64,000 nt of DNA from an archaeon (GTDB lineage Archaea > EX4484-52 > WAPT01). The number at the start of each line of letters is the position of its first letter. The first letter of the stretch is position 1. Of this stretch, positions 21,197 to 52,863 are shown one piece after another. The stretch covers positions 80,043 to 144,042 of the forward strand of contig JAPDKB010000008.1 of the NCBI GenBank assembly GCA_029258795.1, in the 5' to 3' direction. The translations under genes and the position numbers were made by a program. The notes beneath the pieces are model-generated. The model saw only the letters and a list, made by a program, of their open reading frames with translations. It did not search any database and was not told the origin of the DNA.

Positions 21197-21256
21197 AGAA
21201 TTTTTCTGAACAGTATTGAAAACCTTTAAATATTTTTATCACTATATAGTAGTTAC

Positions 21257-22081
21257 ATGAAGATTGAAGAAATTGTTAGAGAAATTAAAGACAAATATTA
21301 TGCTTGCAGAAGATTAAAATCATCTTCCATCGATTCTCTTTGGAGTGAGGCAGTATATTTTTTGCTCGTGATGGACTGGGAAGACATGATAAGGGTCGTT
21401 GAGTGGCCGGAGAAGCTTGTGGGCGATCTCGCGGCAAGATATGAAAAAAGCAAAGAAGAATTTTATGACCACATTCGTGAGAAATACAGAGAGAAATACG
21501 GAGTCCTTCTATCTGAAGAACCACAAAAGAGCACAACATGGCATTTCTTAGGTGACGAAAAAACTCATCGAAAGGCAATTAGAGGTAGGGATGGTGGGAT
21601 TTACCTTCCAAAAATTTACATTAAGGTTGGTAGCAATCATCTTGCGGAAGAAGGTGGAATGGAAAGATACTTCAATATGCTTGGGAAAGTGACAGAATTA
21701 CTTTTGAACAAAGATTGGTTTTGCAAGTTAAAGATGCCGAAAGATTTCGGGAAGTATGTTGTAAGGAAGGACGGCTGTATTTTTTATCTAAAAGATCATG
21801 ATGCTGTGGGATTGAGCGAATCTTTGAACGACATCTATAGAGTCGTACGTAATACTTTCGGAAAAGATGCACGGCTCGTGCTAGGCTACGACAGAATAAA
21901 AGATGGAGGAGAAGACAGCTATTCAGAGGTTCTCGCCAACACTATCGTGGAACTGAGTAGAAGCAACAACTACAGAAATATGGGTGAGGCGCTTAGAGAT
22001 GCGATCTTGCAAATTGAGAAAAACATTGGTGGTGTTTACGGGCATCTAGCTAGAGATTTCGGCCCGTTCACCAACATTTAA
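21257..22081 (+). CDS. Hypothetical protein with HopA1-like (phospho-Ser/Thr lyase fold) motif pattern
   Basis: Motifs in order: W(HF), KIYI, KLK, VRKDGCIFY, LGYD and SYSEVLA. Recognised by eye only. Confidence 0.5.
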   Translation: MKIEEIVREIKDKYYACRRLKSSSIDSLWSEAVYFLLVMDWEDMIRVVEWPEKLVGDLAARYEKSKEEFYDHIREKYREKYGVLLSEEPQKSTTWHFLGDEKTHRKAIRGRDGGIYLPKIYIKVGSNHLAEEGGMERYFNMLGKVTELLLNKDWFCKLKMPKDFGKYVVRKDGCIFYLKDHDAVGLSESLNDIYRVVRNTFGKDARLVLGYDRIKDGGEDSYSEVLANTIVELSRSNNYRNMGEALRDAILQIEKNIGGVYGHLARDFGPFTNI

Positions 22082-22114
22082 AAGTTTTAGAAACCCATTT
22101 TACTGAGGGTTCTC

Positions 22115-23038
22115 TTGCATGCAAAAAGTGTGGTGAGCGCAAAGGACTTCACAAAGAGCTGGCTGGTTGATTTCTTTTCCTTGGTTTCGCGTGTGAAGAA
22201 CAACATGGATGCGTTCAGAAACAAGCTTGATGGGAAGCTCGCTGCCCTTCTGTTCTTCGAGCCATCAACCAGAACTCACGAAAGTTTTAGAGTGGCTGCA
22301 TTGAATTTGGGTATGGACATATGCGGGTTTGCCGATCCCAAAGCGAGTTCTGTGGCAAAGGGCGAGTCCTTGATGGACACTGTGAAAATGTTCGTTGGAT
22401 ATGGAGTTGATGTAATAATAATGAGACACGGGAAGGCAGGAGCAGTAAGATATATAGCTGAGAGAGTCAACATTCCTGTGATAAACGCTGGAGATGACAG
22501 TAATGAGCATCCCACACAGGCGTTGCTCGATACCTACACCATTCATGAAGCTTTCGGCAAAATCGACGGGCTTAAGGTCGGGATGATAGGTGACCTCCGC
22601 TACGGAAGGACGGTGCCTTCATTGGCTTACGCTCTGTCCAATTTCGATGTGGAGATGCATTTCATAGCTCCTCCAGCCCTGATGCTCAGGGAGCACGTGC
22701 GCATGTTTCTGGAGGAGAGAGGCGCAGATTTTCACGAGCATGATGTTTCATCTCTTTCCTCCATTCTGCCAGAGCTTGATGTGCTTTATGTAACGAGAAT
22801 TCAGAAGGAGAGGATACCTGATGAGATGGAATACGAGAAGGTAAGGAGGAGTTACACTGTAACGCGGGAACTGCTGAAAAATGCCAAGGAGAGCTTGATT
22901 GTTATGCACCCATTGCCCAGAGTTGATGAGATAAGGTCAGAGGTTGATGGGACAAAGCACGCTCTTTACTTCAGGCAGGCATCCAACGGCATGTATGTCA
23001 GGATGGCTCTCCTGTATTCCATCCTAAAGGAGGGATAG
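22115..23038 (+). CDS. pyrB: Aspartate carbamoyltransferase catalytic subunit
   Basis: FFEPSTRT, INAGD..EHPTQ, YVTRIQKER and MHPLPR. Confidence 0.97.
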   Translation: MHAKSVVSAKDFTKSWLVDFFSLVSRVKNNMDAFRNKLDGKLAALLFFEPSTRTHESFRVAALNLGMDICGFADPKASSVAKGESLMDTVKMFVGYGVDVIIMRHGKAGAVRYIAERVNIPVINAGDDSNEHPTQALLDTYTIHEAFGKIDGLKVGMIGDLRYGRTVPSLAYALSNFDVEMHFIAPPALMLREHVRMFLEERGADFHEHDVSSLSSILPELDVLYVTRIQKERIPDEMEYEKVRRSYTVTRELLKNAKESLIVMHPLPRVDEIRSEVDGTKHALYFRQASNGMYVRMALLYSILKEG

Positions 23039-23039
23039 G

Positions 23040-23522
23040 ATGAAGGATGGTGAGTTACTTGTAAGGAAGATAAATGAGGGTGTGGTGATAGACCACATAA
23101 GAGTGGGGAGAGGTAAGATTATTTTGAGCATGCTCGGCGTGGATGAGAAGTACAGGTTCGTGCTGGTTTCGAATGTTGAAAGCAGGAAGCTCGGCAGAAA
23201 AGATCTCATAAAGGTGGAGGGCTGGTTTCCGAAAAAGGAGGAGATGGAGATAATAGCCCTGGTTTCGGGAGAGGTCACCATAAACATAGTGAAGAATAAT
23301 GAAGTTGTGGAAAAGTTCAAGGTGAGTCCTCCTTCAAGGGTGGAGGGCTTTGTCAAATGCAGGAACCCTAGATGCATAACCAACGATGAGAGGGAAAAGG
23401 AGTTTGTGAAACCTTTACTGGAGAAGGTAAGTGGCTCGCCCCTCATTTATTCATGTCATTATTGCGACGTCAGGATGGATGAGAGTGAGATTCTGCGCAA
23501 CCTCACAGTTTCAGGGAGGTGA
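23040..23522 (+). CDS. pyrI: Aspartate carbamoyltransferase regulatory subunit
   Basis: GVVIDHI, KDLIKVE, CRNPRCIT and CHYC. Confidence 0.95.
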   Translation: MKDGELLVRKINEGVVIDHIRVGRGKIILSMLGVDEKYRFVLVSNVESRKLGRKDLIKVEGWFPKKEEMEIIALVSGEVTINIVKNNEVVEKFKVSPPSRVEGFVKCRNPRCITNDEREKEFVKPLLEKVSGSPLIYSCHYCDVRMDESEILRNLTVSGR

Positions 23523-24360
23523 GCAGTTTTCTTGCTTCACCCCACCTCCTCGCTTTTCCGAAAGCGGAAAGGTAAGCGGTCACATATTTCCATGGTGTGC
23601 AATCGAAGGCAGGATTCAAAATTTCCACATTCTTTCCTAACTCCTTCGGGTTTATTATTTCGGCAGGAGACCTCATCTCTATCTCCAGCTTCTCAATCCT
23701 TTTGTCAACCTTCAGAACATCTCCCACAAAGTAACATGGCTTCCTTATCTCTTTTGCAAAGACCGCCATCATGCACGTGCCCACCTTGTTATATATCCCC
23801 TCCCTCCTTACGGCATCACACCCGAACATGAACTTGGTGATCTCATCCTTAAAATGACTCAAAGCTGTGTCCACCACGTAAATCACTTTGATGCCTGCTT
23901 CGCTCAACTCTCTCGCTGTTATGATGCCCTGCATTTTGGGTCGGGTTTCCGTCACGATGACGGTAAATTCCTTGCCCTGCTTTCTCGCCTCCTTGAGAAG
24001 GGCTACGAGTTCGCTTGAATGGCAGTGTGTAGCAATAACCTCTCCATTTTTTATTATGTGGTGCCACTCCTTCCCAATGTTTTGTGCTACGTTTTTCAGG
24101 TAGGAAATCAGCTTTTCAACATCCTCCAGCTTTTCTGCTTTTTTTGCCAGCTTCATCGCGTTGTAAAGCACGGATTGTGTGGGTCTCAATGCTGCAAGTT
24201 CATCCGCAAGTTTGGAAAAACCTTCATCAAAGCTATGGATGGAAGCGTAGTCCCTGAGAAGCTGGAGGCATGCAATTGTTATGTTTCTCGCGCCCTGAAT
24301 CTTCAGCTCTTTGATGTCGTGCACCACCACTCTTACCTTTTTTCTGAGCTTCTCGTCCAT
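23503..24360 (-). CDS. Ribose-1,5-bisphosphate isomerase / eIF2B-like protein
   Basis: KIQGA, RPT, THCHSS, TETRP, NKVGT and NPAFD. Confidence 0.85.
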   Translation of the reverse strand: MDEKLRKKVRVVVHDIKELKIQGARNITIACLQLLRDYASIHSFDEGFSKLADELAALRPTQSVLYNAMKLAKKAEKLEDVEKLISYLKNVAQNIGKEWHHIIKNGEVIATHCHSSELVALLKEARKQGKEFTVIVTETRPKMQGIITARELSEAGIKVIYVVDTALSHFKDEITKFMFGCDAVRREGIYNKVGTCMMAVFAKEIRKPCYFVGDVLKVDKRIEKLEIEMRSPAEIINPKELGKNVEILNPAFDCTPWKYVTAYLSAFGKARRWGEARKLLTSLKL

Positions 24361-24405
24361 GTTTTTTCATTGTGGTGAAATCAAAATATAAAGAATTGCG
24401 GTAAA

Positions 24406-25056
24406 ATGATGATTATGGTTATATTCAAGGACAGGGCGGAAGCGGGGAGGATGCTTGCTGAGAAGCTTTCGGAGTATAAGGGTAGGGAGGACGCTGTTGT
24501 CTGCGGGATAACGAGAGGGGGTGTCGTTGTGGCTGCTGAAGTAGCAAGAATTCTTTCTCTTCCGCTTTTGCCCGTGGTAATGAAAAAGATAGGAGCACCC
24601 TTTAACAAAGAATTTGCGATAGGTAGTGTGGATGCTGATGGAAACGTTTATCTGAGCGATGAAGCTATGATGATCACCTCTTCCAACTACATTGAGGAGG
24701 AAGCGGAGAGGTTGAGGGATGAGATCAAGGAAAAGCTGGAGTATTATGGTGTGAAGGGGGAGGTTGTGGAAAGGATGGCGAAGGGGAAGGTCTGTATAGT
24801 GGTGGATGACGGTGTTGCCACCGGCCTCACAACGGTTGGTGCATCCAATTATCTCAAAAGAAAAGGCGCCAAAAAAGTTGTTCTTGCGGTGCCGGTTGCT
24901 CCTGCGGAAAGTGCGGACAAGCTGAAAGAGCATTTTGATGAGGTTGTTGTGGTGCATGCGCCCCAACAATTCTATGCAGTCAGCCAGTTTTACAGGAACT
25001 TCGAGCAGGTGAGTGATGAAGAAGTTAGAAGGATTCTTGAGGAACTGAAGTCATGA
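24406..25056 (+). CDS. Phosphoribosyltransferase-family protein
   Basis: [24 protein letters not shown] and FEQVSDEEV. Confidence 0.9.
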
Positions 25057-26073
25057 GAACGAAAATAGGGTTTTCTGTGCTTTTGCCTTCTCAGCTTCCT
25101 CAAGCTTGGCGAGAGCATTCTCTACCCTTTCCTGCGAGAACTCGTGCTCATCAACCAGAATCTTGATTATCTTTTCTTTATCAAGCTGTGGAAACTCTAT
25201 CTCAACATCCTCTACCGGAGGGTTCATGAAAAATTCAAAGATTGCGTGGGGGTCAACATCATGCTCCCATTTAACATGGATGAGGATGCGATCCAGCGTT
25301 CTGTAGGTTTTCACAAGCTGCAATGCTTTTTTCGGTCCTATGCCTTTCACGCCTTCAGGATTGTAGTCCGTTCCGATAAGAATTCCCATTATTATGAGCT
25401 CTTCCCTGCTTATTTTCAACGTGTTGAGCACCTCCTCCAGCTCTATGAGCTCGGGATGCACCTCCTTGTAGTAAGGCTTGCCCGGAACCTTCCTCTTACC
25501 CGTTATGTTCAGATTTCTGACAAGCCTCGGAGAGCCAAAAAGCAAGGAATCCATGTCTTGGCTCACGGAAGCGTATGCCTGACCCTTCCTCACGAGGTGT
25601 GCGGCTTGCGCTTCCCCCTCAGACGGGGCCTGCACAACCGCTATGCCCATGGCCTGCAGAAGCTCCTTCGATTCCTTCACCATCTCTTCATCCAAACTTA
25701 CGGCTGCCTGCGCGTATTTCCTAGCTTCCTCCAGATCTCCTGCTTCCAGAGCTTCCTTCCATTTCTGTGCGGCTTCCTGCCTTATTCTCTCCCTCTCCTC
25801 TATCGTTTTTTCCTTGAAGGTTGGTTTCTCTCCGTCGAACACATAAACCAGCTTCAAACCCTTCTCAAGCAAATTAACATTTCTGTAGAACAGGCCGGAA
25901 AGATGGGATGTTATGCGCCCTTTAGAATCTTTTAGTGGTGTGCCGTCAGCCTGCCTTATTATGCTGAGAAATTGATAGATTGCGTTGAAGGCATCAACAG
26001 CCAGAACCTTGTGGGCAAGATCCTCGATCTTTATCTCTCTCTTCGGCACGATCTCGCTTATTTTGACGCCCAT
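25051..26073 (-). CDS. fen: Flap endonuclease 1
   Basis: [27 protein letters not shown] and C-terminal PIP box QKTLFSF. Confidence 0.97.
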
Positions 26074-26116
26074 GAATTAAGTGTGGGAAGGAAAGATTTA
26101 AATGAGAATTCTCATT

Positions 26117-27361
26117 TCAGGCGGGACAGGAATAGGCAAGAGCAACATAGTCCCCTGTGGTCACAGGCTGGTTATTTGAATCTGCAAAGGTTATGTCGGT
26201 AAAGGCTGATTCTAATGTTGCGGATAGGGTTGCGCAGTTTCCAACTTTAGTGGTAGAATATATTGCCTCACGTATGCAGTGTTTTGTTGTGGCATCGTAT
26301 ATTGGATGGTCAGCAGGACAGTAAACACAAACATTATCCACATCGTCTTCCTGAATGAAAACTTCTCCAGCTTCAGTGGGTGGGCAGCGGGGTGTTTTGT
26401 AGCACACTTTATCTTCTTTGTCGAATTTCGGATAATCAGATGGGCATTTATAACATTTTCCATTAAGTGCTACATACCCATTTGGGCAGCACCAATATCT
26501 CTCTCCTATGTTCGTGGTAAAACTTCCGTCACAATAATATCCGGACGGACAATAAATATAGAGATAACCAAAAAATGATGGGTCTTCTATTTTAAAACAT
26601 ATTTCCGCACCACTCGGTACACAACCTGGTGCACCACAGGAAGGTGATCGTAAGGCATTTACAATATCAGAAGGGTTCATGTCGTTCCTAGATTTCGTGA
26701 TCCTCGGTACGGGATCTGCCCCTATAATTAGTTTTGTGGGAGGATTGGCTCCAAAATCGCACACCGTTATCTTCACATTACAACCTGCCTTTGGAAGAGA
26801 AAGAGGTATAGTCGATATTCCCGCATTTGAGCCATCATCCTTGAAAATTATCACACCCTGCAACGGCATGCTTCCGCCTGTTGTTCCTCCTGCGGCAAGT
26901 AGATCAGCCGCATCATAACCATCAAGCTTATCGGCATTCAATCCAGTAGATACATCCCCGCTCGCGTCAATTGTCACAGTGCCACCGTTCAAAATCAGGT
27001 TTCCGCTCGAGTCTTCTCGGACGGATGAAGAGGTGAGAGTGTCCGGATCATCCCACTTGGCGAGGAAGTTTGATGTGCCAGAACCATCGATACCGGAGGT
27101 GCCTGCGGGTATTGACGAGCACACCTTACCTGACGCGTCAAAACCAGAAACAAAGCTACCTGTGGGGCACGCGCCCAGTGAGCTCCAGTTGATCACGTTC
27201 GCTGCTATTTTTTCGCCATCAGGGGAGATTGGTTGGCCGTTTCTTGTGAGTATTTCATCTAGGTAGTGGTATACTTGGGAATGAGAAGCGTTTACGATCA
27301 CAACAACGACTGAAAGAATTACGATACTAGAAATGAACAACAAACGATCATATCTCATCAT
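26117..27361 (-). CDS. Secreted fibre/adhesin-like protein with Cys-rich C-terminal repeats
   Basis: Signal peptide; GSGTSNFLAKW and LNADKLDG fibre-like motifs; repeated CPxxY...C units. Confidence 0.7.
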   Translation of the reverse strand: MMRYDRLLFISSIVILSVVVVIVNASHSQVYHYLDEILTRNGQPISPDGEKIAANVINWSSLGACPTGSFVSGFDASGKVCSSIPAGTSGIDGSGTSNFLAKWDDPDTLTSSSVREDSSGNLILNGGTVTIDASGDVSTGLNADKLDGYDAADLLAAGGTTGGSMPLQGVIIFKDDGSNAGISTIPLSLPKAGCNVKITVCDFGANPPTKLIIGADPVPRITKSRNDMNPSDIVNALRSPSCGAPGCVPSGAEICFKIEDPSFFGYLYIYCPSGYYCDGSFTTNIGERYWCCPNGYVALNGKCYKCPSDYPKFDKEDKVCYKTPRCPPTEAGEVFIQEDDVDNVCVYCPADHPIYDATTKHCIREAIYSTTKVGNCATLSATLESAFTDITFADSNNQPVTTGDYVALAYSCPA

Positions 27362-27386
27362 GTTGGTTTAATCTTGCTCTGTGAAA

Positions 27387-27974
27387 TTATATATGTTTTT
27401 TCATCTCCCTCCATTCTTCAAAAGTCAGGACTTTCCCCACAATGTGCCCTCTGCTTATGTAGCCAAAGAAGCGGGAATCGAAGGAATCCTCTTCATTCAC
27501 CTCTTCTCCAAGCACCAGAAAGCTGTTGGCAGGAATTTTTCCGTTCTGTAAAGGAATGCTCAAAATCTTCTTTGCTCTCTCCGAGAACACATATGGCTGG
27601 TTGTTGCTGTTCCGGAGCAGGTTTCCGTTCAGGAACAGGTGAACTCCCTCGAATCTCACTTCATCTCCCGGCAAGCCGACAATCCTCTTAACGAAAATCT
27701 CAGTTCTTGTCTTGAACTTTATGGCCACGATATCCCCTCTCCTTACAGGATTGCAGTCATAATAACCACGCAGCAAAACCACTTCCTGTCCGTTCATTAA
27801 AACTGGTTGCAGGGATGTTCCTCTCACCCTGTGTTCCTCAGCCGTCACACAACTCATATTGATGCTTGTCCAGCTATCCGCACTATTTTGTGGCTTTCCG
27901 TGCAGGACGTAAGTAAAGGTAAACCACGCAGTCATAACCAGCAGCAAAATTGCAACGATAATTTTCAATCTCAT
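27387..27974 (-). CDS. lepB: Signal peptidase I, bacterial (Ser-Lys) type
   Basis: GTSLQP, RGDIV, FVKRIVGLPGD and DSRFFG. Confidence 0.88.
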   Translation of the reverse strand: MRLKIIVAILLLVMTAWFTFTYVLHGKPQNSADSWTSINMSCVTAEEHRVRGTSLQPVLMNGQEVVLLRGYYDCNPVRRGDIVAIKFKTRTEIFVKRIVGLPGDEVRFEGVHLFLNGNLLRNSNNQPYVFSERAKKILSIPLQNGKIPANSFLVLGEEVNEEDSFDSRFFGYISRGHIVGKVLTFEEWREMKKHI

Positions 27975-28019
27975 TGTTTTGAAATAGCGGGTTAAAACGA
28001 TAAAAAAGTTGTCAACCAG

Positions 28020-28460
28020 ATGAGTTCCATGATGGATGTTAAAAGGAAAAAGCGGTATGAGCAGAAACTCGACGAGCTTATCGACAGGCTGGAGTTCATA
28101 CAGGAAAACCTGCCAGCCAAGAGAGAATTTCTGGAAAACAGGATAATCAGGAAAGCACTCTACAAAGAGTTTCAGGAAGCCGTGGAGATCGTTTCTGATA
28201 TAGCAGCCATGATGGTGAAGGATAACGGGAAACTTGTGAAGGATGACTACTCAAACCTGGAAGCTTCGGCCAAAATTTTGGGACTGAAGGGAACAACGGT
28301 TGAACTCCTGAAGCGTGCTCACGGCTTGAGAAATGTGCTCGTGCACGAGTACAACGGTATAGTGGATGAGATGGCCTATGATGCTATAAGGGAAGTTTTA
28401 CCTGCAATTGAGACATTTTTCAAAAGGGTGGAAGAATGGTTGAGGAGCTGGAAAAGCTGA
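28020..28460 (+). CDS. HEPN (DUF86/HepT-like) RNase toxin
   Basis: GLRNVLVHEY (RX4H motif). Confidence 0.88.
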   Translation: MSSMMDVKRKKRYEQKLDELIDRLEFIQENLPAKREFLENRIIRKALYKEFQEAVEIVSDIAAMMVKDNGKLVKDDYSNLEASAKILGLKGTTVELLKRAHGLRNVLVHEYNGIVDEMAYDAIREVLPAIETFFKRVEEWLRSWKS

Positions 28461-28825
28461 AGGAGAAAATTGCAAATGACTTCTCGTTCCTGCTGAACGA
28501 TGTGCTGGGCGTAATCCTTTTCGGTTCGGTCGTGATGAACAAGAGCACACCCCGCTCCGATATAGATGTGTGTGTGGTCGTCGGCACAACATCCAAAAGT
28601 GAGGTCAAGAGGATATTCGATAACATTCTCAGCTCTGGTGTCACGCAGCGATACGATGTGAAAATATTTGAAATGCTTCCGCTCCACCTGAAAGGAGAAG
28701 TGCTGGAGAATGGAGTAATTGTTGCAAGCAAGGATGAGAGAGAACTGAGCTACTACCTCCATAAGTACAGAAAGATGTGGCAGGATCATGAAATCAAGAT
28801 GAAGAAGCTCGGAATAAAACCATGA
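28436..28825 (+). CDS. Minimal nucleotidyltransferase (MNT) antitoxin
   Basis: LFGS..SDIDVCVV and LPLHLK; overlaps the HEPN gene. Confidence 0.88.
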   Translation: MVEELEKLKEKIANDFSFLLNDVLGVILFGSVVMNKSTPRSDIDVCVVVGTTSKSEVKRIFDNILSSGVTQRYDVKIFEMLPLHLKGEVLENGVIVASKDERELSYYLHKYRKMWQDHEIKMKKLGIKP

Positions 28826-28849
28826 AAGAAATCCCACATGATAATTTTT

Positions 28850-29750
28850 TTAGCGATACCAGCAATACACTGTATGATACACACTTTCTGTTGCTGCACT
28901 AGAACACGACCGCTGAAATTCTATGTTTCTGGTGCTCGGATCCACAAAAAGTGTGAACACGTAAAAACCCCAGCCGTAACAATATTCCTGTGTGTCCACT
29001 TTATTCACATAAGTGAATCCGTTACCTGAAAAAGTAATCAGATCAGTAGCCGAAAAGATAACGTATTTCCCACACTTGATGTGAAGAGTACAACTGCTAC
29101 CATCATTAGCCGTTGTAGTATAAATGAACAATCCCGTTCCAGCACCAGGGTTAATACAGCAAATTAGTTGTTTTGCAGCCGAAGGTAACGCCCCAATGAC
29201 CTTTGTTCCTGTTTCAGTTCCGCTAAAACTTGCACTCCCAAGAAGTTTCCATGGAGTCGATACATCGGCAAATGGATGATCGTAACAGGAGGTTGCTGGA
29301 GTTCCAGCAGCAAGCAAGTCACTTGCCTCATACCCATCAAGCTTGTCGGCATTTAAGCCAGAAGAAATCCCTCCGCTTGAATTTATTGTTACAGTGCCGC
29401 CGTTTAAAATCAGGTTTCCTTCTGAGTCCTCTCGAACGGATGAAGATATCAGCGTATCTGAATCACTCCATTTAGCCATGAAGTTTGAAGTGCCTGAGCC
29501 ATCAACCGGTGGGAGGGAGCCATATTTTGCCCTGCGAATTAAATCCGGATACGAAGCTTCCGGAGGGGCATGTGCCTAAAGAGCTCCAGTTGATCACGCT
29601 TGAAGTTATTGTTTCTCCGTTGGCGGAGATGGGTTTTCCGCTTTTTGTTATTATTTCGTCGAGGTAGTGGTAGACTTAGGGGTGGGAGAAGTTTGTGACA
29701 GCCATGACAGTAAGTGCTGTAGCTAATATCCACATTAACGTTTTTTTCAT
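28850..29750 (-). pseudogene. Disrupted paralog of the 26117-27361 fibre gene with a different C-terminal domain
   Basis: Reads MKKTLMW..SHP*VYHYLDEII..VINWSSLGTCPSGSFVSGF. In-frame TAA at 29676-29678 where the paralog has Gln, and a frameshift near 29520; the 28850-29479 part remains open. Confidence 0.85.
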
Positions 29751-29808
29751 GATCTTTTTCCTGAGTTAGAAAGTTATATAATTTACGTCCCGGGTACGAT
29801 GCAAAATT

Positions 29809-31362: not shown

Positions 31363-31426
31363 GGTATCACAGCGTTATTTAATGTGCAGGAAATCTTTAA
31401 GTAATTTCCGATAAAGGCAAAAGCCG

Positions 31427-31687: not shown

Positions 31688-31712
31688 ATCTCACACCTCT
31701 ACCCTGTTTAAT

Positions 31713-40906: not shown

Positions 40907-40911
40907 CCCTA

Positions 40912-41678: not shown

Positions 41679-41685
41679 TCACACA

Positions 41686-44325: not shown

Positions 44326-44328
44326 GGG

Positions 44329-44628: not shown

Positions 44629-44635
44629 CTATTCG

Positions 44636-44884
44636 TCACCCCCTAACGACGTATTTTGTTATGGCTATCGTGCCGATGAATGAAAGCAAAATCATGACTA
44701 TACTTATGTCAAGATAGTATGCTGTTTCCCTCGAAAAAGCCATTATCACCAAATAGATGGAGATCAGTGCTACTGTAAGATCAGTGTACATCATCAGCTC
44801 GTAAAGTTTTCTCGAGGTTAGCAGCTTCACAAACACCATTATACTGGTTAACAGGAGCACGTAAGTGTAAAGCATGGTCACCAC
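44636..44884 (-). CDS. mbhB: MrpF/MbhB subunit
   Basis: YLDISI..LLSFIGTIAITKY. Confidence 0.85.
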   Translation of the reverse strand: MVTMLYTYVLLLTSIMVFVKLLTSRKLYELMMYTDLTVALISIYLVIMAFSRETAYYLDISIVMILLSFIGTIAITKYVVRG

Positions 44885-45333
44885 CTCAACGCATCAACGT
44901 ATTTTTTTCCAACCTGCTTCTTGAGTTCTGGAGATGCAACATGCACGATAGCACTATCATCATCGCACCTTACAACTATAGTCCCGGGTGTTAGAGTTAT
45001 CCCGTTGTAAACGAGGAGGTTGACAAGCTCATGATGAGTTGGTCGTTTAATTTTGATGAAACTCTCTTTTTCCTCCCCTCTCAGGATTATCAGTGTCATG
45101 CGAGCATGAGCTTTGATTTCTTCCAAAACAAGCCGTACCGAGTACCTTATAAAAGCCACAACACCCTGAAGAACTTTCAGCTCCTCCTTTCTCGGGAACG
45201 TGAAACGTGCCGACATGAAAGTCACTGCTATGGAAGCTCCGACACCAACCACCAGCTCGTCAGGGCTTGTTGCGCCTGTGAACATTATCCAGCATCCTAT
45301 AAGGATGAGGAACACCACAAAATATCTCTTCAT
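44878..45333 (-). CDS. mbhA: MrpE/MbhA subunit
   Basis: NGITLTPGT and IVH. Confidence 0.88.
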   Translation of the reverse strand: MKRYFVVFLILIGCWIMFTGATSPDELVVGVGASIAVTFMSARFTFPRKEELKVLQGVVAFIRYSVRLVLEEIKAHARMTLIILRGEEKESFIKIKRPTHHELVNLLVYNGITLTPGTIVVRCDDDSAIVHVASPELKKQVGKKYVDALRW

Positions 45334-45421
45334 GCTGATATTTTTGTTTCATCCATGATATATAGTTTTGGGTGGACGGTTTCGAAATCTTTATATAGTG
45401 GCGTGAGAAAAAATTAACTTC

Positions 45422-45736
45422 ATGCCCGAGTTCATATTTAGATTACCTGATGGGAAGGAAGTCGGGAGAGCGAAAAACTTGCGGGAATTTTTGAAAAAGC
45501 TCAAAGAAGTCCCCCTTGAGAGTTTGGAGTATCACTTCTACAACAAACACTTTGCACCGTGGTTGAAGGATAATGGACATGGGAAGCTGGTTGCAAGGAT
45601 GAATCTTGTGAAGGTTAAAAGCAGGGAGGAGCTGCGCGACAAGCTCGTTGCGTGCGTTAAAGCGTATATGGATTCAACATCCAAATCAAGGAAAGGAAAG
45701 AGCGGGAGGGGCAGGAAAAATGCTAAAAGGCGTTAA
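45422..45736 (+). CDS. DUF5752-like small protein
   Basis: F.F..G..A.NL.EF...L..VP.ESLEYH...HFAPWL pattern; basic tail. Confidence 0.7.
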   Translation: MPEFIFRLPDGKEVGRAKNLREFLKKLKEVPLESLEYHFYNKHFAPWLKDNGHGKLVARMNLVKVKSREELRDKLVACVKAYMDSTSKSRKGKSGRGRKNAKRR

Positions 45737-46355
45737 GGTTGGATTTGTTATCCTTGCTTTTGCTGTTCTTCTCACGCTCCATTTCTATACTTTTCTGCCC
45801 GGAAGGATAGCGATACACTGGAACGCTGAAGGAGTGCCGGATGGTTATGCATCAAAAGAAGCAGGACTTATGCTCATTCCACTAATTCTTCTCATGGTCC
45901 TGCTTCTCTTCGAGGCGATACCCAGAATAGACCCGCTTTCAAAGAACATAAAGAAGTTCATGAATTTTTATGATGGGTTCGTGATAGCTTTTGCCATATT
46001 CATGGCTTTTGTGCAGGTGCTCCTCTTGCTTTACAATGCGGGGTATGCTTTCAACATGGGCTCACTGATTATTGGAGCGTTGGGCATTTTCCTCGTTTAC
46101 ATCGGAATCGTGCTACCTCACCTCAGAAGAAACTGGTTTATCGGGATAAGGACTCCGTGGACTCTTAGCAGCGAGGCAGTTTGGGAGAAAACTCACAAAT
46201 TGGGCGGGAAGCTGTTCATCTGTGCGGGCATCATCTCCTTGCTTTTCAGTGTGTTTTTCAGCAAGGCCGTTGTTGTGCTTGTCATTCTTCTGATAGCCAT
46301 CAGCGTTATTCTCATCACGTATTCTTACCTGCTCTGGAGGAAGGAAAGGAAGTGA
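45720..46355 (+). CDS. SdpI/DUF1648-family membrane immunity-like protein
   Basis: IAIHWN..G.PDG, RNWFIGIRTPWTL and WEKTHKLGG. Confidence 0.88.
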   Translation: MLKGVKVGFVILAFAVLLTLHFYTFLPGRIAIHWNAEGVPDGYASKEAGLMLIPLILLMVLLLFEAIPRIDPLSKNIKKFMNFYDGFVIAFAIFMAFVQVLLLLYNAGYAFNMGSLIIGALGIFLVYIGIVLPHLRRNWFIGIRTPWTLSSEAVWEKTHKLGGKLFICAGIISLLFSVFFSKAVVVLVILLIAISVILITYSYLLWRKERK

Positions 46356-46833
46356 GCTCTTCCGAGCTGACCACCCTTCTGAAATTCTCTGGATGCCAGG
46401 AGTTGGGATAGTCAACCCATCTCGCATGATTCTGCTCCACAAGCAATCGATTCACGTTGAGAAAATGAGTCCTGTTCGCTTTCACGTAAAGAATGGCAAT
46501 AACCCTTCCGTACCCGTCATAGGTGCTTTTTTCGTCCACATCCAGATACACGGTGGTGTGATTTGAGAGCAATCTTTCCAGAAATTCCTTGGCCTCCTTG
46601 CCTCCTTCCTCTTCCAGCTCAAACGCATCTATGTCAGCAAGCCGCACCTTAAAACTCTGGTTTTCCTTGAAGCCAGCAGTACTTTTAACCCAGAGAGTAT
46701 CGCCGTCCACCACCCTTTCAACGACACAGATAGCGTTGATTTCGGGAGAGGGCGTGCTACCATTCTGAACGCAGAAGAGATTGAGCAATATCGCAATCAG
46801 CAAAAAGAATGGTATTTTGGTTCGCATCTCCAT
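46315..46833 (-). CDS. Secreted thermonuclease (SNase-like)
   Basis: Signal/anchor, VVDGDT, VRLADIDAFE, DGYGR and VN..LV...A. Confidence 0.88.
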   Translation of the reverse strand: MEMRTKIPFFLLIAILLNLFCVQNGSTPSPEINAICVVERVVDGDTLWVKSTAGFKENQSFKVRLADIDAFELEEEGGKEAKEFLERLLSNHTTVYLDVDEKSTYDGYGRVIAILYVKANRTHFLNVNRLLVEQNHARWVDYPNSWHPENFRRVVSSEELTSFPSSRAGKNT

Positions 46834-46887
46834 ATTCCATACTGAAAGATGATTATGAATTTAAATTTAGGGTGAAATTATAGGTTT

Positions 46888-47211
46888 ATGAGAAGCAACG
46901 GGTATCTGAAAAAAGTTGAAGAGAGTATAAGAAACTCTGAGGCGTACAGAGAGCTGATCGATGAGGCGGGTGGATTGAGTAAGAGGTATGTTGAGAAACA
47001 GCTCGATAGATTTCTGAGAATTATCAGAATTGGGCTGGATGAGAACGTGATGGAAATCAGCAGGAGAGAGCTTGATGAGCTCATTGATGCCGGGAAGATG
47101 GGAGATGTGTTCAGAATGTACGTGGATAACGGCATTTATGGTGGTGATCTGACCTCACCACAAACAACCTACAGGATCATTAAAAGATGCATGGAGAAGG
47201 CGAAGCTATAA
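46888..47211 (+). CDS. Hypothetical protein
   Basis: 107-aa ORF, TTTAAA about 25 nt upstream (leaderless). Confidence 0.6.
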   Translation: MRSNGYLKKVEESIRNSEAYRELIDEAGGLSKRYVEKQLDRFLRIIRIGLDENVMEISRRELDELIDAGKMGDVFRMYVDNGIYGGDLTSPQTTYRIIKRCMEKAKL

Positions 47212-47916
47212 TTTTTCAGCGAGTTCTGTGATTACGTTCTTCAGCTTTCCCTGCACCCTTTTCATGAGCTCAAAGACCTCCTCCAGCGTTATCCTGCTCT
47301 GCATACCCGCCGCGTAGTTGGTAACAACGCAAAGCGACGCGTATTCCAAATTCTGTTCTCTGGCGAGGACGGCCTCTGGTACGGAGGTCATGCCAACGAC
47401 ATGAGCTCCGAGCATTCCGTACATTCTTATCTCTGCTGGCGTCTCAAATCTTGGACCTGCGGTACACACGTAGATTTTGTTGGTATGAACGACGAACCTC
47501 GCTTTTTCGCACAGCTCCTTCAGGATTGAAATCAATCTTTCCGAATACGGGTTGGTCATGTCCACATGCACTACCTCATCCTCAAAATACGTCCACACAT
47601 GCTTCGTGAAGTCAAGAAAATCAGATGGCAACACAACGCTTCCAGGTTTGATTTCTTCTGTGAGGGAGCCCACCGAGTTTATTCCTACCACAATTTTAGC
47701 GTTGGAAAGCTTAGCCGCCATTATATTTGCATGATGATTCAGTTTGTGTGGTGGTGCTTCATGCTCCTTTCCATGGCGCGGAATGAAAAGGAATTCCTTG
47801 CTTTCCGTGGATTTAACACGATATGCAACAACCTTTCCGTAAGGTGTGCTTATCTCAACCTCCTCACTATCCTCAAACAGCTTTTCCAGTCCGCTCCCTC
47901 CTATCACGCAGAGCAT
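47206..47916 (-). CDS. mtnP: MTAP-family purine nucleoside phosphorylase
   Basis: IGGSG, PRHG, GPRFETPAE, VGMT and VTNYAAG. Confidence 0.92.
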   Translation of the reverse strand: MLCVIGGSGLEKLFEDSEEVEISTPYGKVVAYRVKSTESKEFLFIPRHGKEHEAPPHKLNHHANIMAAKLSNAKIVVGINSVGSLTEEIKPGSVVLPSDFLDFTKHVWTYFEDEVVHVDMTNPYSERLISILKELCEKARFVVHTNKIYVCTAGPRFETPAEIRMYGMLGAHVVGMTSVPEAVLAREQNLEYASLCVVTNYAAGMQSRITLEEVFELMKRVQGKLKNVITELAEKL

Positions 47917-47949
47917 GAAGAAAAATTGTGGAAGAAAAGATTTTATTGT

Positions 47950-48082
47950 TGGCGCCGGGGGTGGGATTCTCGTTAGGGTGCCATCCTAACCACTCAAGTG
48001 CGGCACCTTCTTTCGAACCCACGCGCCCTTGCGGGCACCAGCTCTCCAGGCTGGCGCACTGGCCTGGCTATGCGACCCCGGC
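47950..48082 (-). tRNA. tRNA-Ser(GGA) with a 45-nt insertion at 59/60 (47967-48011)
   Basis: Acceptor stem GCCGGGG/CCCCGGC, anticodon GGA, long variable arm, TTCG/CGAG central helix, encoded CCA. Confidence 0.92.
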
Positions 48083-48154
48083 AGCACGAGATGTAAATTT
48101 ATGGTTTGGCTGTGGGGTTTAAATTTTTTCTGGTGAGTGAGAAGAAGAAAGAGC

Positions 48155-49369
48155 TCAGTAAACCCTGAACTTCCCCTCTATTATTGCTTTCGTTATTTCT
48201 GTTATTGCTGCGAGCTCCTCATCCACGATCTTCCTTATCTTATCTTCCTCGTAGCCAGAACCCCACACATCCACGCTCGCAACCTTCGGGTAATCTATCC
48301 TCCTCCCTATCTGGCTGAGAATTCTCACAACCACATCATCCACTCCGCTTACTTCTTCAACAATCCTGTTAGCTATTTTAAACGAGAGCACGTTGTAAAT
48401 CTTTCCAACGTGGTTGTACGGGTTCTTACCTGCGGCAGCTTCCATCGACATGGGTCTGTATGGAGTTATGAGGCCCGATACCCTGTTTCCTCTGCCAACG
48501 CTTCCATCGTCACCCATCTCGGCAGATGTTCCAGTTAAGGTGAGGTAGAAATCGCTTGGCTCTGTGCCGTTTTCGTTGTCAGCCGTGTTAAGATAGACAT
48601 TAACCTCGTAATTATCTTTAGTGATGCTTGATGCAAATTCTTTCGCTTCCTCAAGCACGGCTTTTTTAGCATCAAGATACTCCGAAGCGGAGTTTATGTG
48701 TTTGGAAATGAATGCAGCAGCAATTGTGAGGTGAATCCTGTCCTTCATGCGGAGCCCCATCACCTTTATATCCTCTCCCACATACTTGTGCTTGGATTTG
48801 AAGTCAGAGGAGTTTAGGAATCTCTCCATCTCAAGCACAAGCTTCTCAAGCTGGGTGTATGGAGCAAATCCAACTCCAAAAGATGTATCGTTAGCACATG
48901 GCACTTCCTCCTTCCTCTTGAACACGTTGACAAGATCAGCTGACCCGCTCCCCATGACTGAGTCTATAACAACCTCATTATCAACATTAAGGTTTGGCAG
49001 GGATTTCTTGAGGAAGTCTCGCGTTGCTTCAATTGCTACCTCATGCACCGGAATGTAATCATCCTCCACGTTGGCTGTTGCCCTGCCAGAAAGTATTATC
49101 TTGATGGGCTTGAGAATCTCACCCCCGCCAAAATGAACATGCACCTCTCCACCCACAACCTCACACTGATCTGTGTTGTGGTGCATGAGAGTACCATACC
49201 TCTTGAGATATTCTTTACACAGAGCTACACTAACGCTTTCGGCAATTCCATCGGCCATCGTGTCTGGGTGTCCTATTCCCTTCCTTTCCACCATTTCCAC
49301 ATCTCTTTTCCATGAAGGTAAAGCGTCCATCCTTTCTATGACTATGTTCCTCTCCATAGGCCTCACCAA
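48155..49369 (-). CDS. mat: S-adenosylmethionine synthetase, archaeal type
   Basis: [37 protein letters not shown] and AAGKNP..HVGK. Confidence 0.95.
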
Positions 49370-49401
49370 TCTGAGATGTTACAATTAATCAGAGAAAAGC
49401 T

Positions 49402-49698
49402 TTATAAGGATTTACTTCTTTCTTCTTTTGTCCTGATAAGATCAGCGTATATGTCGCAGACCCACCCCTCACCATAGTTTCTTCCCTCACAATTTACCAT
49501 CATATATGATTTAGGGTCTGCTTCACACTTAGGTATATCTTCGCCGGAATCAAGCTTATCCATGAAGAAACAAGGACACTCTCCCGGCTCAGCAACATAA
49601 CCCGTGGCAAGTTTTTTTGCGATGTCAATTCTGGTTTCTTTAATTTTTTCCAGAATTTTTTCCAGTTCTTCTCCTTTAACAGAATAAGCAGGCATCAT
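49402..49698 (-). CDS. Small Cys-containing hypothetical protein
   Basis: MMPAYS... (98 aa, five Cys) with a TTTTTAAA box upstream; the longer ORF-track version runs antisense to archease. Confidence 0.6.
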   Translation of the reverse strand: MMPAYSVKGEELEKILEKIKETRIDIAKKLATGYVAEPGECPCFFMDKLDSGEDIPKCEADPKSYMMVNCEGRNYGEGWVCDIYADLIRTKEERSKSL

Positions 49699-49750
49699 TT
49701 GGTTTATATTTGAAAGATTTAAAAACATTTTCTCAGTATTAGAAAGATTT

Positions 49751-50185
49751 ATGCCGTACGAGTTTTTTGAACACAAGGCAGACATGGGGATAAGAGGACT
49801 TGGCAAAACAGTTGCTGAGGCGTTTGAGGAAGCTGCCAGAGCAATGTTTGATGTTATGTTTGATATAGATGATGTAAGCAGAGAGATTGAAGTTAGCGTT
49901 TCATGTGAGGCCTCGAGCTTGGATGAGCTGCTTGTTGAATGGCTCAATGCTTTGCTTGCTGAAAAGGATATTCATGATGCTGTGTTTGCTCATTTTGAAA
50001 TAAGCAAGATTGAACATGAGAAAGATGGTAGGTGGGTGCTTGAGGGCAAGGCTTATGGTGAGAAACTTAATGTTGAGAAGCACAAGCCGGAGGTGGAGGT
50101 TAAGGCAGCAACTTATTCCCAGCTCAAGGTTTACTTTGATGAGGATAAGAAAGTGTGGGTTGCGCAGTGTGTGGTGGATGTCTGA
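49751..50185 (+). CDS. Archease (RtcB cofactor)
   Basis: YEFFEHKADMGI, EVKAATY and VVDV C-terminus. Confidence 0.93.
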   Translation: MPYEFFEHKADMGIRGLGKTVAEAFEEAARAMFDVMFDIDDVSREIEVSVSCEASSLDELLVEWLNALLAEKDIHDAVFAHFEISKIEHEKDGRWVLEGKAYGEKLNVEKHKPEVEVKAATYSQLKVYFDEDKKVWVAQCVVDV

Positions 50186-50200
50186 GGGGCAATAACAGTC

Positions 50201-50615
50201 TCACCCTGCCCTGTTCCATGGCGGTAGCTCATCGTGCTTATCCTCGTACCCCTTTCTTAACTTCTCCTCCAGCTGTTTGGCTCCCTCTTTGTCTTTCATA
50301 AGCTTAGCTAACCTCGACCGGCGTTACGTTATACTCTCCCTCAAGCAGATAACGGCTGACCCCTCCTGATTGTCTTCTCGCCATAGCTCTTATAATACTC
50401 CCCAAAAAATTGTTCTCCTAATTAGAGCTGTGTCCGATGTAAAGGATATCATATTTTCCTTTCAATCTTCCGAACTCCTTATTGAGACGGAAAACATACA
50501 CTCCCACAGCTTGTTGAAGCTTTTTGCGTGAGTTATCAGATCGAATGACTTCAGAGAATGCAATCCAGTTCTTGAGCCCATACTTGTGCATGTCTTCTGA
50601 CTTCATTTTGTTCAT
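50201..50615 (-). pseudogene. Degenerate GIY-YIG nuclease-like gene
   Basis: GVYVFR..GRLKG..DILYIG, then stops/frameshifts, then LEEKLRKGYEDKHDELPPWNRAG*. Confidence 0.65.
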
Positions 50616-50642
50616 CTTCTAGACATATTCTCTTGAATGGCA

Positions 50643-51833
50643 TCATTTTCTCGCCACTATCTCTATCACATCCCTGTGCTTGAGCTCGTAATCTCTGGAA
50701 AGCGCTTTGTTCGTCCTTATATCTATTGCTTTTATGAAATTGTCTCCAAGCTCCTTGTGAATGGCATATGCAAGATCGAGGGCTGTTGAACCCTTCTCCA
50801 TCAAGAAGCAATCCGGCAGAACGTTGCCTTCCTTGTCAGTCAGTTTGGCGTTGGGCACCGGGAAGACCGCTATCATTTCAAGCAGTTCAAACACAGCTTT
50901 GTCCACGAGCTGCTGAATTCCTGTTGAGCCGTAAACATCGAGCACCTTCTCCCTTATGAACTCCAGCCCCTTTCTCTGCTGTTCATTCAGCTCCCTTTTG
51001 ACAACGAAGTCTTTTTCTCCCGGAACGTAATCTATGTAACCATTTTTTGCTGCCATCTTCAATGCTATTTCAGCATGTGCTGAGCATGGAACAACGATTT
51101 TATCTGGAAACTTTTCCTTCAGCCTCTCAACCATCTCCGGCTTGGCTATATCCACCTTGTTAGCTGCAATTATCATCTTCTTGCTCTCATGAAGAATAGC
51201 TTTTGCAAAGCTTTTTATCTCGTCATCACTCCAGTTAAACAGCTTTTTGTCCTCAAGCCCGCAACTTGCTAAAGCTTTTTTTATCGCTCCCTCCTTCATC
51301 TTGAGGCCGGAGAGCATCTCGTAAAGCAATTCCTCCTTGCTGCGCTGCATTTCTGCTCTTGCCATCTTGCTCCAGCTCCTCTTCAGTATGCCATAAATCC
51401 ACATCACCAGCTCCTCCTCCAGAAACTCAACGTCTCTTGCGGGATCGTAGCTGCCAGCAGGAACTTTCTCCCCCTTTTCGTTGGTTGAGCCGGAAGCATC
51501 CACAACATGGATAAGCACGTCAGCATTCCTCAAATCATCCAGAAACTGGTTACCCAAGCCTTTACCTTCATGCGCTCCCGGAACCAGGCCAGCAACGTCA
51601 ATCAGCTGGATGGGCACGAACCTCCAGCCGTTGAGGCAGAAGCCCTGCTTCGGGTTGCATTTAACGTTGAACTCCTTGCATACACACTCAAGTTTAGCAT
51701 AAGCTATGCCAACGTTGGGTTTTATGGTGGTGAATGGGTATTCGGCTATCTCCACCTCAACAAGCGTTAGAGCTTTGAAAACGCTGCTCTTACCCACACT
51801 TGGCTTGCCCACAAGTCCAATCTTTACTGGCAT
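50643..51833 (-). CDS. OBG-family NTPase (archaeal YchF-like, TGS domain)
   Basis: GKPSVGKS, YPFTT, DVAGL, ANKVD and C-terminal TGS domain. Confidence 0.92.
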   Translation of the reverse strand: MPVKIGLVGKPSVGKSSVFKALTLVEVEIAEYPFTTIKPNVGIAYAKLECVCKEFNVKCNPKQGFCLNGWRFVPIQLIDVAGLVPGAHEGKGLGNQFLDDLRNADVLIHVVDASGSTNEKGEKVPAGSYDPARDVEFLEEELVMWIYGILKRSWSKMARAEMQRSKEELLYEMLSGLKMKEGAIKKALASCGLEDKKLFNWSDDEIKSFAKAILHESKKMIIAANKVDIAKPEMVERLKEKFPDKIVVPCSAHAEIALKMAAKNGYIDYVPGEKDFVVKRELNEQQRKGLEFIREKVLDVYGSTGIQQLVDKAVFELLEMIAVFPVPNAKLTDKEGNVLPDCFLMEKGSTALDLAYAIHKELGDNFIKAIDIRTNKALSRDYELKHRDVIEIVARK

Positions 51834-51895
51834 GAGTTGAAAATGTAACAGGAAAATTTTAATTATGAGCACGGTCCCAACGAGTGAAATATGTG

Positions 51896-52669
51896 CTAGA
51901 CCTCTATCCTACCGTTTATCAAGAGGTAAAATAGTTCTTTCTGAAGTTTTGGGTCACGTCTCAATTTATCATCATCTATCTTTTCTACAGCTCCGCTTTC
52001 TTTCCACACTATAATGAGATCCTCTCCGCTATAGTTGGAAACTCTGCATCCTACTCCCGGAGTAACCTCAATATCGCGTATTATACGTACTGGTTGTTCT
52101 GGCAAAAATTGGTATATTTTACTTACATCGTCCATTATTTTCAAAGACTTTTCGATAGATTCAGGATATACTGCAAAAGCTTTGCCTTGTTGTTCGCTTC
52201 TGTTCAGATCATTCCACTCAGAGTGCGATTTTACAACTTTGTAGACCTGTTCACAACTGTTGAGGTAACCTGTAATACAACACGCAGTTATGGCTGCAAG
52301 TTCTGGATCTTCTGGCAAACTTATGTGAACTTTGAGACCTTGCTTGCCTAGCTCGTATTCCTTATCCATCGTACCATTAACCTGGATCCATGGAGTTCCG
52401 GGTCTAGAAGTAGTTTCGAAATTCTCAGACAGATACCGGCTTAGGTCCTCTAATCCCAAAGAAGAATATTCGCGGAGCAAGTCGTATAAGGCATTTCTTA
52501 AATCTCCAGCACGTGTCATATATTTTGGGTTTCGTTTCGATATTGCATATATTGTTCTGCCGATTAGTTCAGGTTTAGTGTAAGTTCGCCCTTCCGAATT
52601 CGTAATTTTTTCAGGTAAACGCTCAACGAACTCGACAATTTTTCCGGCCAAATAACTATTTGTACTCAT
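51896..52669 (-). CDS. Stand-alone LanL/LanKC-type phospho-Ser/Thr lyase domain protein
   Basis: PWIQV..KQGLKVHISL..YKVV..LN..QQGKAFAVYP..IIRD..GCR matches the order of the W..QGWKxHxS..FK..GKxxxxYP..ILSD..R lyase motifs. Confidence 0.7.
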   Translation of the reverse strand: MSTNSYLAGKIVEFVERLPEKITNSEGRTYTKPELIGRTIYAISKRNPKYMTRAGDLRNALYDLLREYSSLGLEDLSRYLSENFETTSRPGTPWIQVNGTMDKEYELGKQGLKVHISLPEDPELAAITACCITGYLNSCEQVYKVVKSHSEWNDLNRSEQQGKAFAVYPESIEKSLKIMDDVSKIYQFLPEQPVRIIRDIEVTPGVGCRVSNYSGEDLIIVWKESGAVEKIDDDKLRRDPKLQKELFYLLINGRIEV

Positions 52670-52683
52670 ACACCCACCTCATC

Positions 52684-52709
52684 TTGTTACTACTATGTAA
52701 TAGTAACAA
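52684..52709. promoter_or_regulatory. Palindromic operator-like site between TATA box and start of the lyase-like gene
   Basis: TTGTTACTA-N8-TAGTAACAA, a perfect 9-bp inverted repeat. Confidence 0.65.
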
Positions 52710-52863
52710 TGAAAATATTTAAACTTTTCGTTCAGGTATGAGGAGAAGTAAAAATAACTAATCTTTCTATCAAGCTTTTCTTTACTCATTTCAAGAACAT
52801 CTCTATGATTAGACACCCACCATCAATCTTTGGGGAGAAGTGACTTAGATTTTCTTTTTGCTT

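Follow-up and report, generated by a model that had tools for sequence, protein, structure and literature searches.

The 64,000-nucleotide stretch analysed here (the window; G000:C3:80043-144042) comes from a 1.17-Mb genome in 23 contigs, designated G000, of an archaeon of the DPANN lineage (Diapherotrites, Parvarchaeota, Aenigmarchaeota, Nanoarchaeota and Nanohaloarchaeota). Two genes of the window, A (21257-22081, plus strand, an open reading frame (ORF) of 274 amino acids (aa)) and B (51896-52669, minus strand, an ORF of 257 aa), carry just downstream of their TATA boxes what the comparative analysis supports as copies of one cis-element, rare in the genome and conserved in relatives. The element has the approximate consensus GTTACTAT-N0/3-ATAGTAAC with the core arms TACT...AGTA, and it is located downstream of TATA, ahead of the predicted site of transcription initiation. 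Judged from the sequences, it marks a wide and very mixed set of accessory genes beyond A and B, and this set is probably a repressor-controlled one not yet described.

Promoters of genes A and B and the foreign-promoter rank test

The core promoter of gene A (21218..21232, plus strand) consisted of GAAAACC (21218-21224), which resembles a TFIIB recognition element (BRE), together with the TATA box TTTAAATA (21225-21232), after which came a T run. On the same strand, ATAGTAGTTACA occupied 21246-21257, and its final A also forms the first base of the ATG. An operator-like dyad, ATCACTAT-ATA-GTAGTTAC (21238..21256, plus strand), with the perfect palindrome ACTATATAGT of 10 base pairs (bp) inside it, abutted the ATG (21257), and because the dyad runs right up to this codon, the gene A mRNA is predicted to be leaderless. 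In the case of gene B, the core promoter (52716..52730, minus strand) comprised the BRE-like CGAAAAG (52730-52724) and the TATA box TTTAAATA (52723-52716), with ATAGTAGTAACA at 52696-52685 of that strand. The first-pass annotation had given the coordinates and promoter sequences of both genes correctly to the base, and the operator-like palindrome that it had described at gene B, the inverted repeat TTGTTACTA-N8-TAGTAACAA (52709-52684, minus strand), was confirmed. The same palindrome could alternatively be read as GTTACTAT-TAC-ATAGTAGT, with a spacer of 3 and two mismatches, or with TAGTAAC, which lies three bases farther along, as a perfect outer arm. Judged by the distance from the TATA box, gene B transcription would start within the right arm. 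The short leader of gene B contained a Shine-Dalgarno-like GAGGTGG (52674..52680, minus strand), and GGGGTGG or AGGTGA stood at the equivalent place in the B homologues of genomes G036 and G019. Upstream of gene A, directly 3' of the thermosome gene, a G+C-rich hairpin with a T run behind it (GGAAAGGGC-TTCG-GCCCTTTC-TTTTT, window positions 21170-21197) looks like a terminator parting the thermosome gene from the gene A promoter.

The shared promoter/operator signature proposed in the first-pass annotation proved to have two halves of different standing. A profile of 361 TATA-bearing promoters of this genome gave the consensus AAA-nn-TTTAWATA-TTTT, with AAA at -5..-3, then TTTAWATA and a T-rich stretch at +8..+12. 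The GAAAA-TTTAAATATTTT half of the signature is thus the ordinary, generic BRE/TATA/T-rich consensus of the genome and is not specific to A and B, whereas the half formed by ATAGTAGTWACA and the dyad is rare and conserved. The information content at +13..+45 of the profile was at most 0.17 bits, and the remainder of the A-B match is therefore no general promoter feature. ATAGTAGTWACA was exact at both promoters, downstream of BRE/TATA. With at most one mismatch it occurred three times in the window against 0.16 expected, a number reached in none of 100 shuffles, and the whole genome contained three exact copies, namely those at A and B and one at C1 247792-247803 without an adjacent TATA box. 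The notion that the A-B pair is a statistical outlier among promoters was ruled out: local alignment of the 45 nucleotides (nt) after the TATA octamer scored 22 for this pair, a value equalled or exceeded by 235 of 64,980 promoter pairs (0.36%), and A and B were each only the third-best partner of the other. The whole upstream regions of the two genes aligned with a score of 35-37, and for each of them one other locus scored equally or higher. The upstream CTGAAC common to A and B was dismissed as a chance occurrence (3 of 361 promoters versus 2.07 expected). The significance of the shared element rests for this reason on the comparative data, in particular the foreign-promoter rank test, and not on the A-B pair alone.

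Homologues of gene B, identified by protein search alone (36-40% identity), were present in four other genomes, G036, G025, G019 and G011. When their promoters were read without reference to gene A, three of the four contained the element 3-5 nt after TTTAAATA, as ACTACTATATAATGGTAAC in G036, ATCACCAAATAGTAGTA in G025 and ACTACTATATAATAATTAAC in G019; nothing similar was found at the G011 promoter. The search of genome contigs for further B homologues with promoters returned only two that were already known, and metagenome and viral contigs gave none. The 24-26 nt after TATA of these three foreign promoters, and no other sequence, were made into a profile, with which the whole 1.17-Mb genome was scanned. 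Without the TATA box, the gene A site took ranks 1 and 2 (9.2 and 8.2 bits) among 342 matches and the gene B site ranks 5-6; with the TATA box included, the gene A promoter was the first of 88 matches (11.2 bits, expectation value (E) 0.7) and that of gene B was 7th-8th. Among 233 column-permuted models without TATA, gene A was never first or among the top six, gene B was never among the top six, and 9.2 bits was reached by only two models. This ranking, together with the permutations, was the main reason for accepting a functional element common to A and B.

Conservation was also seen at a dyad-bearing gene encoding a 414-aa protein in this genome (C1:174917), the orthologue of which in G002 encodes a 52% identical protein. 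The block from TATA to TTACT-N4-AGTAACAAA was kept between the two, and the DNA further upstream had diverged. At the G002 orthologue, the conserved block reached TTACTATATAGTAACAAA and the promoter contained a 14-bp palindrome and a 13-nt tandem duplication. This duplication (GTAATTACTAAAT / GTAATTACTATAT; L014 2723-2778, G002:C8) lies in the operator region and creates a second left arm.

Distribution of the element within the genome and across the phylum

The clue to a palindrome just past the TATA box came from the higher-scoring promoter partners of gene B. Dyads of the form GTTACTA/TAGTAAC with at most two mismatches numbered 25 genome-wide, against 15-23 in Markov simulations, which is no overall excess. 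By eye, about seven of the 25 abutted a TATA box, and a regular-expression count gave eight near a TATA box at the same mismatch limit. When the 8-mer arms GTTACTAT/ATAGTAAC were scanned with up to four mismatches and only matches no more than about 20 nt from a TATA box were counted, there were nine at spacer 3, six at spacer 0 and five at spacer 6, the mean of the ten other spacers being 1.0. Genome-wide counts of the same arms, with no TATA condition, were flat (16-43 per spacer). The spacing preference was present only beside TATA boxes, and the element was located at about 9-12 promoters of this genome. The gene A dyad matched GTTACTAT/ATAGTAAC at 12 of the 16 arm positions, at spacer 0 and spacer 3 alike.

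Besides genes A and B, the loci with spacer 0 or 3 included C1:223038 and C4:63841, each with a 78-aa gene, C1:174917 with the 414-aa gene, C1:90763 with a PadR-like gene, C1:242107, located 128 nt upstream of the gene for transcription factor TFB, and C3:55125, located between a 122-aa gene and the gene for the TATA-binding protein (TBP). Further loci of this kind were C3:26301 and C17:2362, as well as C4:89222 and C3:58430, neither of which is followed by an ORF. In a scan of 14 neighbourhood proteins, no family exceeded the cut-off for the products of the two dyad-bearing 78-aa genes, the 414-aa gene or a 155-aa gene (C1:212551). The first-pass annotation had reported that the motif was not seen before housekeeping genes, and this was upheld: no copy preceded a ribosomal or clear housekeeping gene, one ambiguous weak site being shared by the 122-aa gene and TBP, and the element was not frequent in AT-rich intergenic DNA.

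The wider distribution was determined in 42 sampled genomes of the phylum, this genome included. The pattern TTAAATA-N2-12-ACYAWATARTRRT gave ten matches, five of them new, versus none for the reversed control. This search revealed a near-copy of the gene A promoter before a 170-aa unknown protein (G002:C20) and a perfect 25-bp palindrome (G019:C93). Sixteen aligned promoters, those of A and B among them, served to train a sequence-only family model, R1, which yielded 40 rows at E ≤ 0.01, of which 16 were training-locus rows and 24 were new, in 15 genomes. About nine loci of this genome matched R1 at E ≤ 1. Within the window, the unfiltered model found only A and B, the next-best match reaching 7.5 bits; the weaker echo that the first-pass annotation had placed before the ORF at 680 was not recovered, as the upstream region of this ORF did not reach E 10. 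Eleven of the 15 new R1 loci that were read had [TC]ACT-N2-10-AGTA directly after TATA. The R1 loci included the palindromic ATTACTAT-TTA-ATAGTAAT in G041, GTTACTAATTAGTAGTAAT in G001 and AATTACTATATAGTAGTTATG in G023, the last being leaderless like gene A. The carrier at G023:C9 was a phage-integrase-family gene with a promoter almost identical to that of gene A. Fifteen foreign carrier proteins were compared with Pfam, 11 from the new R1 loci read and four from the TTAAATA pattern sites; five had a family (Radical_SAM, NosD/beta-helix, DUF2610, Phage_integrase and CARDB) and ten had none. The suggestion of a co-regulated regulon was retained as regards a shared and conserved cis-element, and given up as regards its confinement to A and B, since the carriers form a mixed accessory set. 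The further idea of an effector regulon that responds to host contact is a conjecture. A search for RNA runs returned none.

Proposed operator function, candidate regulators and alternative explanations

We consider it rather probable that a dimeric winged-helix repressor uses the element as its operator. In 11 promoters measured by hand, the dyad centre lay 19-26 nt after the first T of TATA, and the leaderless members had their ATG at +29 to +32 counted from TATA; the element would therefore span roughly -19 to +4 of the start site deduced from these distances. The palindromy of the 25-bp repeat at G019:C93, the 14 bp of the G002 orthologue and the G041 site speaks for binding by a dimer and not for a core element with a direction. 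A and B each have a strong, ordinary archaeal BRE/TATA promoter with one copy of the palindrome between TATA and the predicted start. According to the proposed mechanism, a dimeric repressor bound to this palindrome would block the recruitment of RNA polymerase, and some signal would release the repressor and allow transcription. Occlusion of RNA polymerase recruitment by a dimer on a start-site palindrome is the mode of repression of the MDR1 and Phr type. Both MDR1 of Archaeoglobus fulgidus and Phr of Pyrococcus furiosus are named in the review PMC4158304 as repressors between TATA and the start; the mechanism proposed here is alike, whereas the motif sequences are different and unrelated.

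By analogy, the best candidate for the regulator would be a TrmB-like factor, an assignment that we judge to be possible, though short of likely. The TrmB-family sites given in PMC4158304 are TACT-N3-AGTA (TrmB of P. furiosus and Thermococcus litoralis), TACT-N7-8-GAGTA (VNG1451C of Halobacterium salinarum) and TATCAC-N5-GTGATA (the Thermococcales glycolytic motif, bound by TrmBL1/Tgr), and repressing archaeal sites are described there as lying downstream of BRE/TATA at the start site, where they hinder RNA polymerase recruitment. The element is likewise a TACT/AGTA inverted repeat downstream of BRE/TATA, at what would be the start. Inverted repeats with TACT and AGTA arms occurred at gene B, at C1:223038 and C1:174917, at the 414-aa gene's orthologue in G002, in G041, G001, G018, G023 and elsewhere, and gene A had CACT...AGTA. 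TACT and AGTA were mainly N4 or N7 apart, those of B being separated by N10. Of these distances, N7 agrees with the haloarchaeal form and N4 with neither of the two published TACT/AGTA forms. In contrast to the TrmB operators, the arms of the element are longer (GTTACTAT / ATAGTAAC) with their own N4/N7(/N10) spacing, the carriers are accessory, surface and lyase-like genes instead of genes of sugar transport or central metabolism, and no consistent autoregulatory site was found. The gene A site starts with TATCAC and five further bases and, like the Thermococcales glycolytic motif, lies downstream of TATA, but its right half is AGTAGT and not GTGATA, and other members of the family have TTACT or CTACT in place of TATCAC. 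Searches of a limited literature collection for TrmB and archaeal palindromes, Aenigmarchaeota promoters and DPANN transcription returned no description of the element.

The TrmB family (PF01978) was above the cut-off in all 42 genomes, with 13 matches in this one, and a conserved 275-aa TrmB-like protein was encoded at G000:C2:116814-117641. At the G002 orthologue of its gene, ATTACT-CAAA-AGTAAT stood directly upstream of TATA. In both same-genus relatives, the gene divergent from the TrmB-like gene had a dyad-type ATTACC-ATAA-AGTAAAAAATG after its TATA box (L073 1845-1891, G002:C13; L072 1845-1890, G001:C7). In G000 the TrmB-like gene lacks this divergent neighbour and has a DNA ligase gene upstream. 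A PadR-like factor (C1:90785) was rejected as the regulator: homologues occurred in only 7 of 41 other genomes and were missing from the element-bearing G002, G025, G019 and G011. The gene for this 114-aa PadR-like protein (G000:C1:90763-91129, L032) has between TATA and ATG a perfect inverted repeat of its own, TTTACGATATTGTAAA (TTTAC-GATATT-GTAAA), which is probably an autoregulatory site.

A number of observations weigh against a TrmB-like regulator, or against the operator reading altogether. The palindrome upstream of the TrmB-like gene is degenerate in G000 and G001, no sugar-related or central-carbon target was present among the scanned carriers, and genus g3 has the TrmB orthologue yet few or no R1 matches. 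Single E-values are weak, being 3.5 for gene A with the foreign model lacking TATA and 0.7 with TATA, and those of R1 are optimistic, as A and B belong to its training set and real genomes are TATA-rich. The 12/16 match of gene A, taken by itself, corresponds to a false-discovery rate of roughly 20%, about one such match per spacer being expected by chance beside TATA boxes, and a matrix scan placed gene A 17th genome-wide, with several non-promoter matches ahead of it. The spacing between the arms varies in 3-bp steps (N0/N3/N6 in the 8-mer notation), which is unusual for a rigid dimer. The right arm AGTAACAA, lacking a left arm, was found 35-36 nt after the TATA boxes of the genes for ribosomal protein S2 (G000:C1:186368) and Alba (G000:C3:78586), and part of the match may therefore reflect an initiator or leader preference; as a sign of a general initiator, these two occurrences were set aside and regarded as half-sites or coincidence. 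Lastly, the bare arms TTACT-N4-7-AGTAA were not enriched in the 42 genomes (233 sites versus 442 for the reversed control), so that a signal is seen only when the arms are longer and belong to a promoter.

Some of these observations would be accommodated by a variant core-promoter module, a proximal element combined with an initiator that would make a subset of promoters very strong or would be read by the basal factors TBP, TFB or TFE instead of a gene-specific regulator, an explanation that we regard as unlikely. The location is that of proximal and initiator elements in archaea, the element frequently has a TATATA-like centre, the TATA box is near-perfect in every carrier, and the recurrence of AGTAACAA near the predicted S2 and Alba starts points the same way. 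However, the positions concerned are almost devoid of information in the 361-promoter profile, and only the nine or so loci mentioned above match R1 in the whole genome. It is the symmetric arms that are conserved, the centres TAC, TAA and AAAG are not TATA-like, and perfect long palindromes are unexpected for a directional element. Resemblance by chance between two AT-rich promoter-proximal sequences with no common function, which could appeal to the many equally similar promoter pairs, to the bare arms without enrichment and to single-site E-values near 1, appears highly improbable in view of the rank test with its 233 permutations, the spacing preference confined to TATA boxes, the ten pattern matches against none in the control, and the conservation before orthologues.

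Common descent is about as unlikely as the core-promoter module. In this explanation the accessory genes would have moved as cassettes together with the promoter of a mobile element, such as an integrating virus or plasmid with a repressor of its own that recognises this promoter. The carriers are indeed patchy and orphan-like (gene A has no homologue in 60 relatives and a 78-aa gene none in 45), two thirds of the foreign carriers (10/15) fall outside Pfam families, and the integrase-family carrier shares its promoter almost identically with gene A. Against it, this genome has its sites on three contigs, dispersed between housekeeping genes, gene A itself following the thermosome gene, and the flanks outside the element are unrelated. 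Moreover, the element persists before homologues that are only 36-52% identical, where neutral DNA would be randomised, and it is therefore under selection, whatever its origin. Such a history is compatible with a repressor operator rather than opposed to it.

If the operator reading is followed to its widest extent, one conserved repressor would silence a changing accessory set across the phylum until its signal arrives; it might be TrmB-like and sense a metabolite that comes from a host or from the environment. This regulon, specific to the DPANN lineage concerned, would include phospho-Ser/Thr-lyase-like enzymes of the stand-alone kind as well as surface proteins, small orphan proteins and an integrase, and newly acquired genes would join it by carrying or gaining the palindrome between TATA and the start; as a joint reading, we consider this doubtful. 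To our knowledge, next to nothing has been learnt of how DPANN archaea control their genes. These organisms do not grow on their own, and for a large part of their genes no function is assigned. With a conserved operator there would be a handle that needs no cultivation, as it groups such 'dark' genes into a co-controlled set and predicts their joint response, and it would also serve as a short DNA probe for finding the regulator among recombinant proteins. A TrmB-like regulator would widen the known range of its family beyond sugar metabolism, into accessory and surface functions. For now, the practical value is modest.

Proteins encoded by genes A and B and other dyad-bearing loci

The first-pass annotation had described A and B as two lyase-like genes, which agreed with the results for B only. 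The gene B model (predicted local distance difference test (pLDDT) score 87.7, predicted template-modelling (pTM) score 0.89) retrieved with Foldseek, as its top ten, only chains of class III lanthipeptide synthetases (ThurKC, CuvL and SalKC; E 7e-6 to 3e-4), followed by SpvC, OspF and VirA (about 3e-3). The Foldseek probabilities were 0.97-1.00 and the TM-scores modest (0.3-0.5). Residues 88-185 also gave sub-threshold matches to RamC_N / LanL N-terminal profiles. According to the model, gene B has a phospho-Ser/Thr-lyase-like fold, of the kind found in the LanKC lyase domain, SpvC and OspF. In a three-sequence alignment, K113, H115 and K163 were invariant, forming a K-x-H and a later GK motif; these residues are candidate counterparts of the catalytic residues of SpvC or LanL. 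Unlike LanKC and LanL, the gene B protein is a stand-alone protein of 257 aa with an extra N-terminal helical domain, and kinase domains, cyclase domains and neighbouring lanthipeptide genes were not seen at this locus. Shorter proteins from G011 and G019 (open frames of 123-194 aa in L005, G011:C11, and in L006/L031, G019:C132) match only this helical domain (residues ~9-86), and the domain therefore also exists alone. The short G019 copy keeps the dyad.

Gene A showed no similarity to gene B by BLASTP, and hhalign of A or its three-member family against the B family gave a probability below 1%. No Pfam or NCBIfam family was assigned to gene A, and no homologue was found in 60 related genomes or by a word-indexed search; a full scan of 1.84 billion representatives returned two distant relatives. 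In the one relative locus that was recovered (L087), the gene is second in an operon and lacks its own promoter, and this locus is therefore uninformative on the element. The single-sequence AlphaFold model of gene A was unusable (pLDDT 45). A language-model comparison gave a weak resemblance to clusters with HopA1 in 11-46% of their members (score 0.93), the recognition value of 1733 being below the mark of 2300 set by the tool. When window positions 19000-24000 were compared with contigs of four other runs, the flanks were near-identical and no contig covered or bridged 21338-22005, which by the rule of the tool counts as no evidence.

Several of the other dyad-bearing loci have features of their own. 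At G000:C3:58408-58454 (L040 ~509-555) and G000:C4:89215-89253 (L010 ~2216-2254), a promoter with the dyad is followed by about 190-300 nt without an ORF of at least 40 aa (C3:58430) or at least 45 aa (C4:89222). G+C-rich, hairpin-prone sequence follows both sites, and Rfam and tRNA scans downstream of them returned nothing; they may correspond to unannotated small RNAs or very small proteins. The C3:58430 site has 17 identical bases (ACTAAAGAGTAACAAAA) in common with the C1:174917 promoter. The best-scoring dyad (L007 1093-2539, G000:C1:221592-223038) heads four small genes on the same strand, encoding 78, 57, 104 and 213 aa, the last with a membrane segment; none of them has a Pfam family. 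A second, weaker dyad, CTTACTA-AAAT-TACTAAC, is located before the 57-aa gene, and by eye the 78-aa protein looks winged-helix-like and the 57-aa protein ribbon-helix-helix-like. The other dyad-bearing 78-aa gene (L009 1603-4445, G000:C4:63102-65944) has on one side a gene for a HerA/DUF87-type ATPase of 670 aa and on the other one for a cysteine-rich protein of 108 aa, the N-terminal signal of which is hydrophobic and pilin-like.

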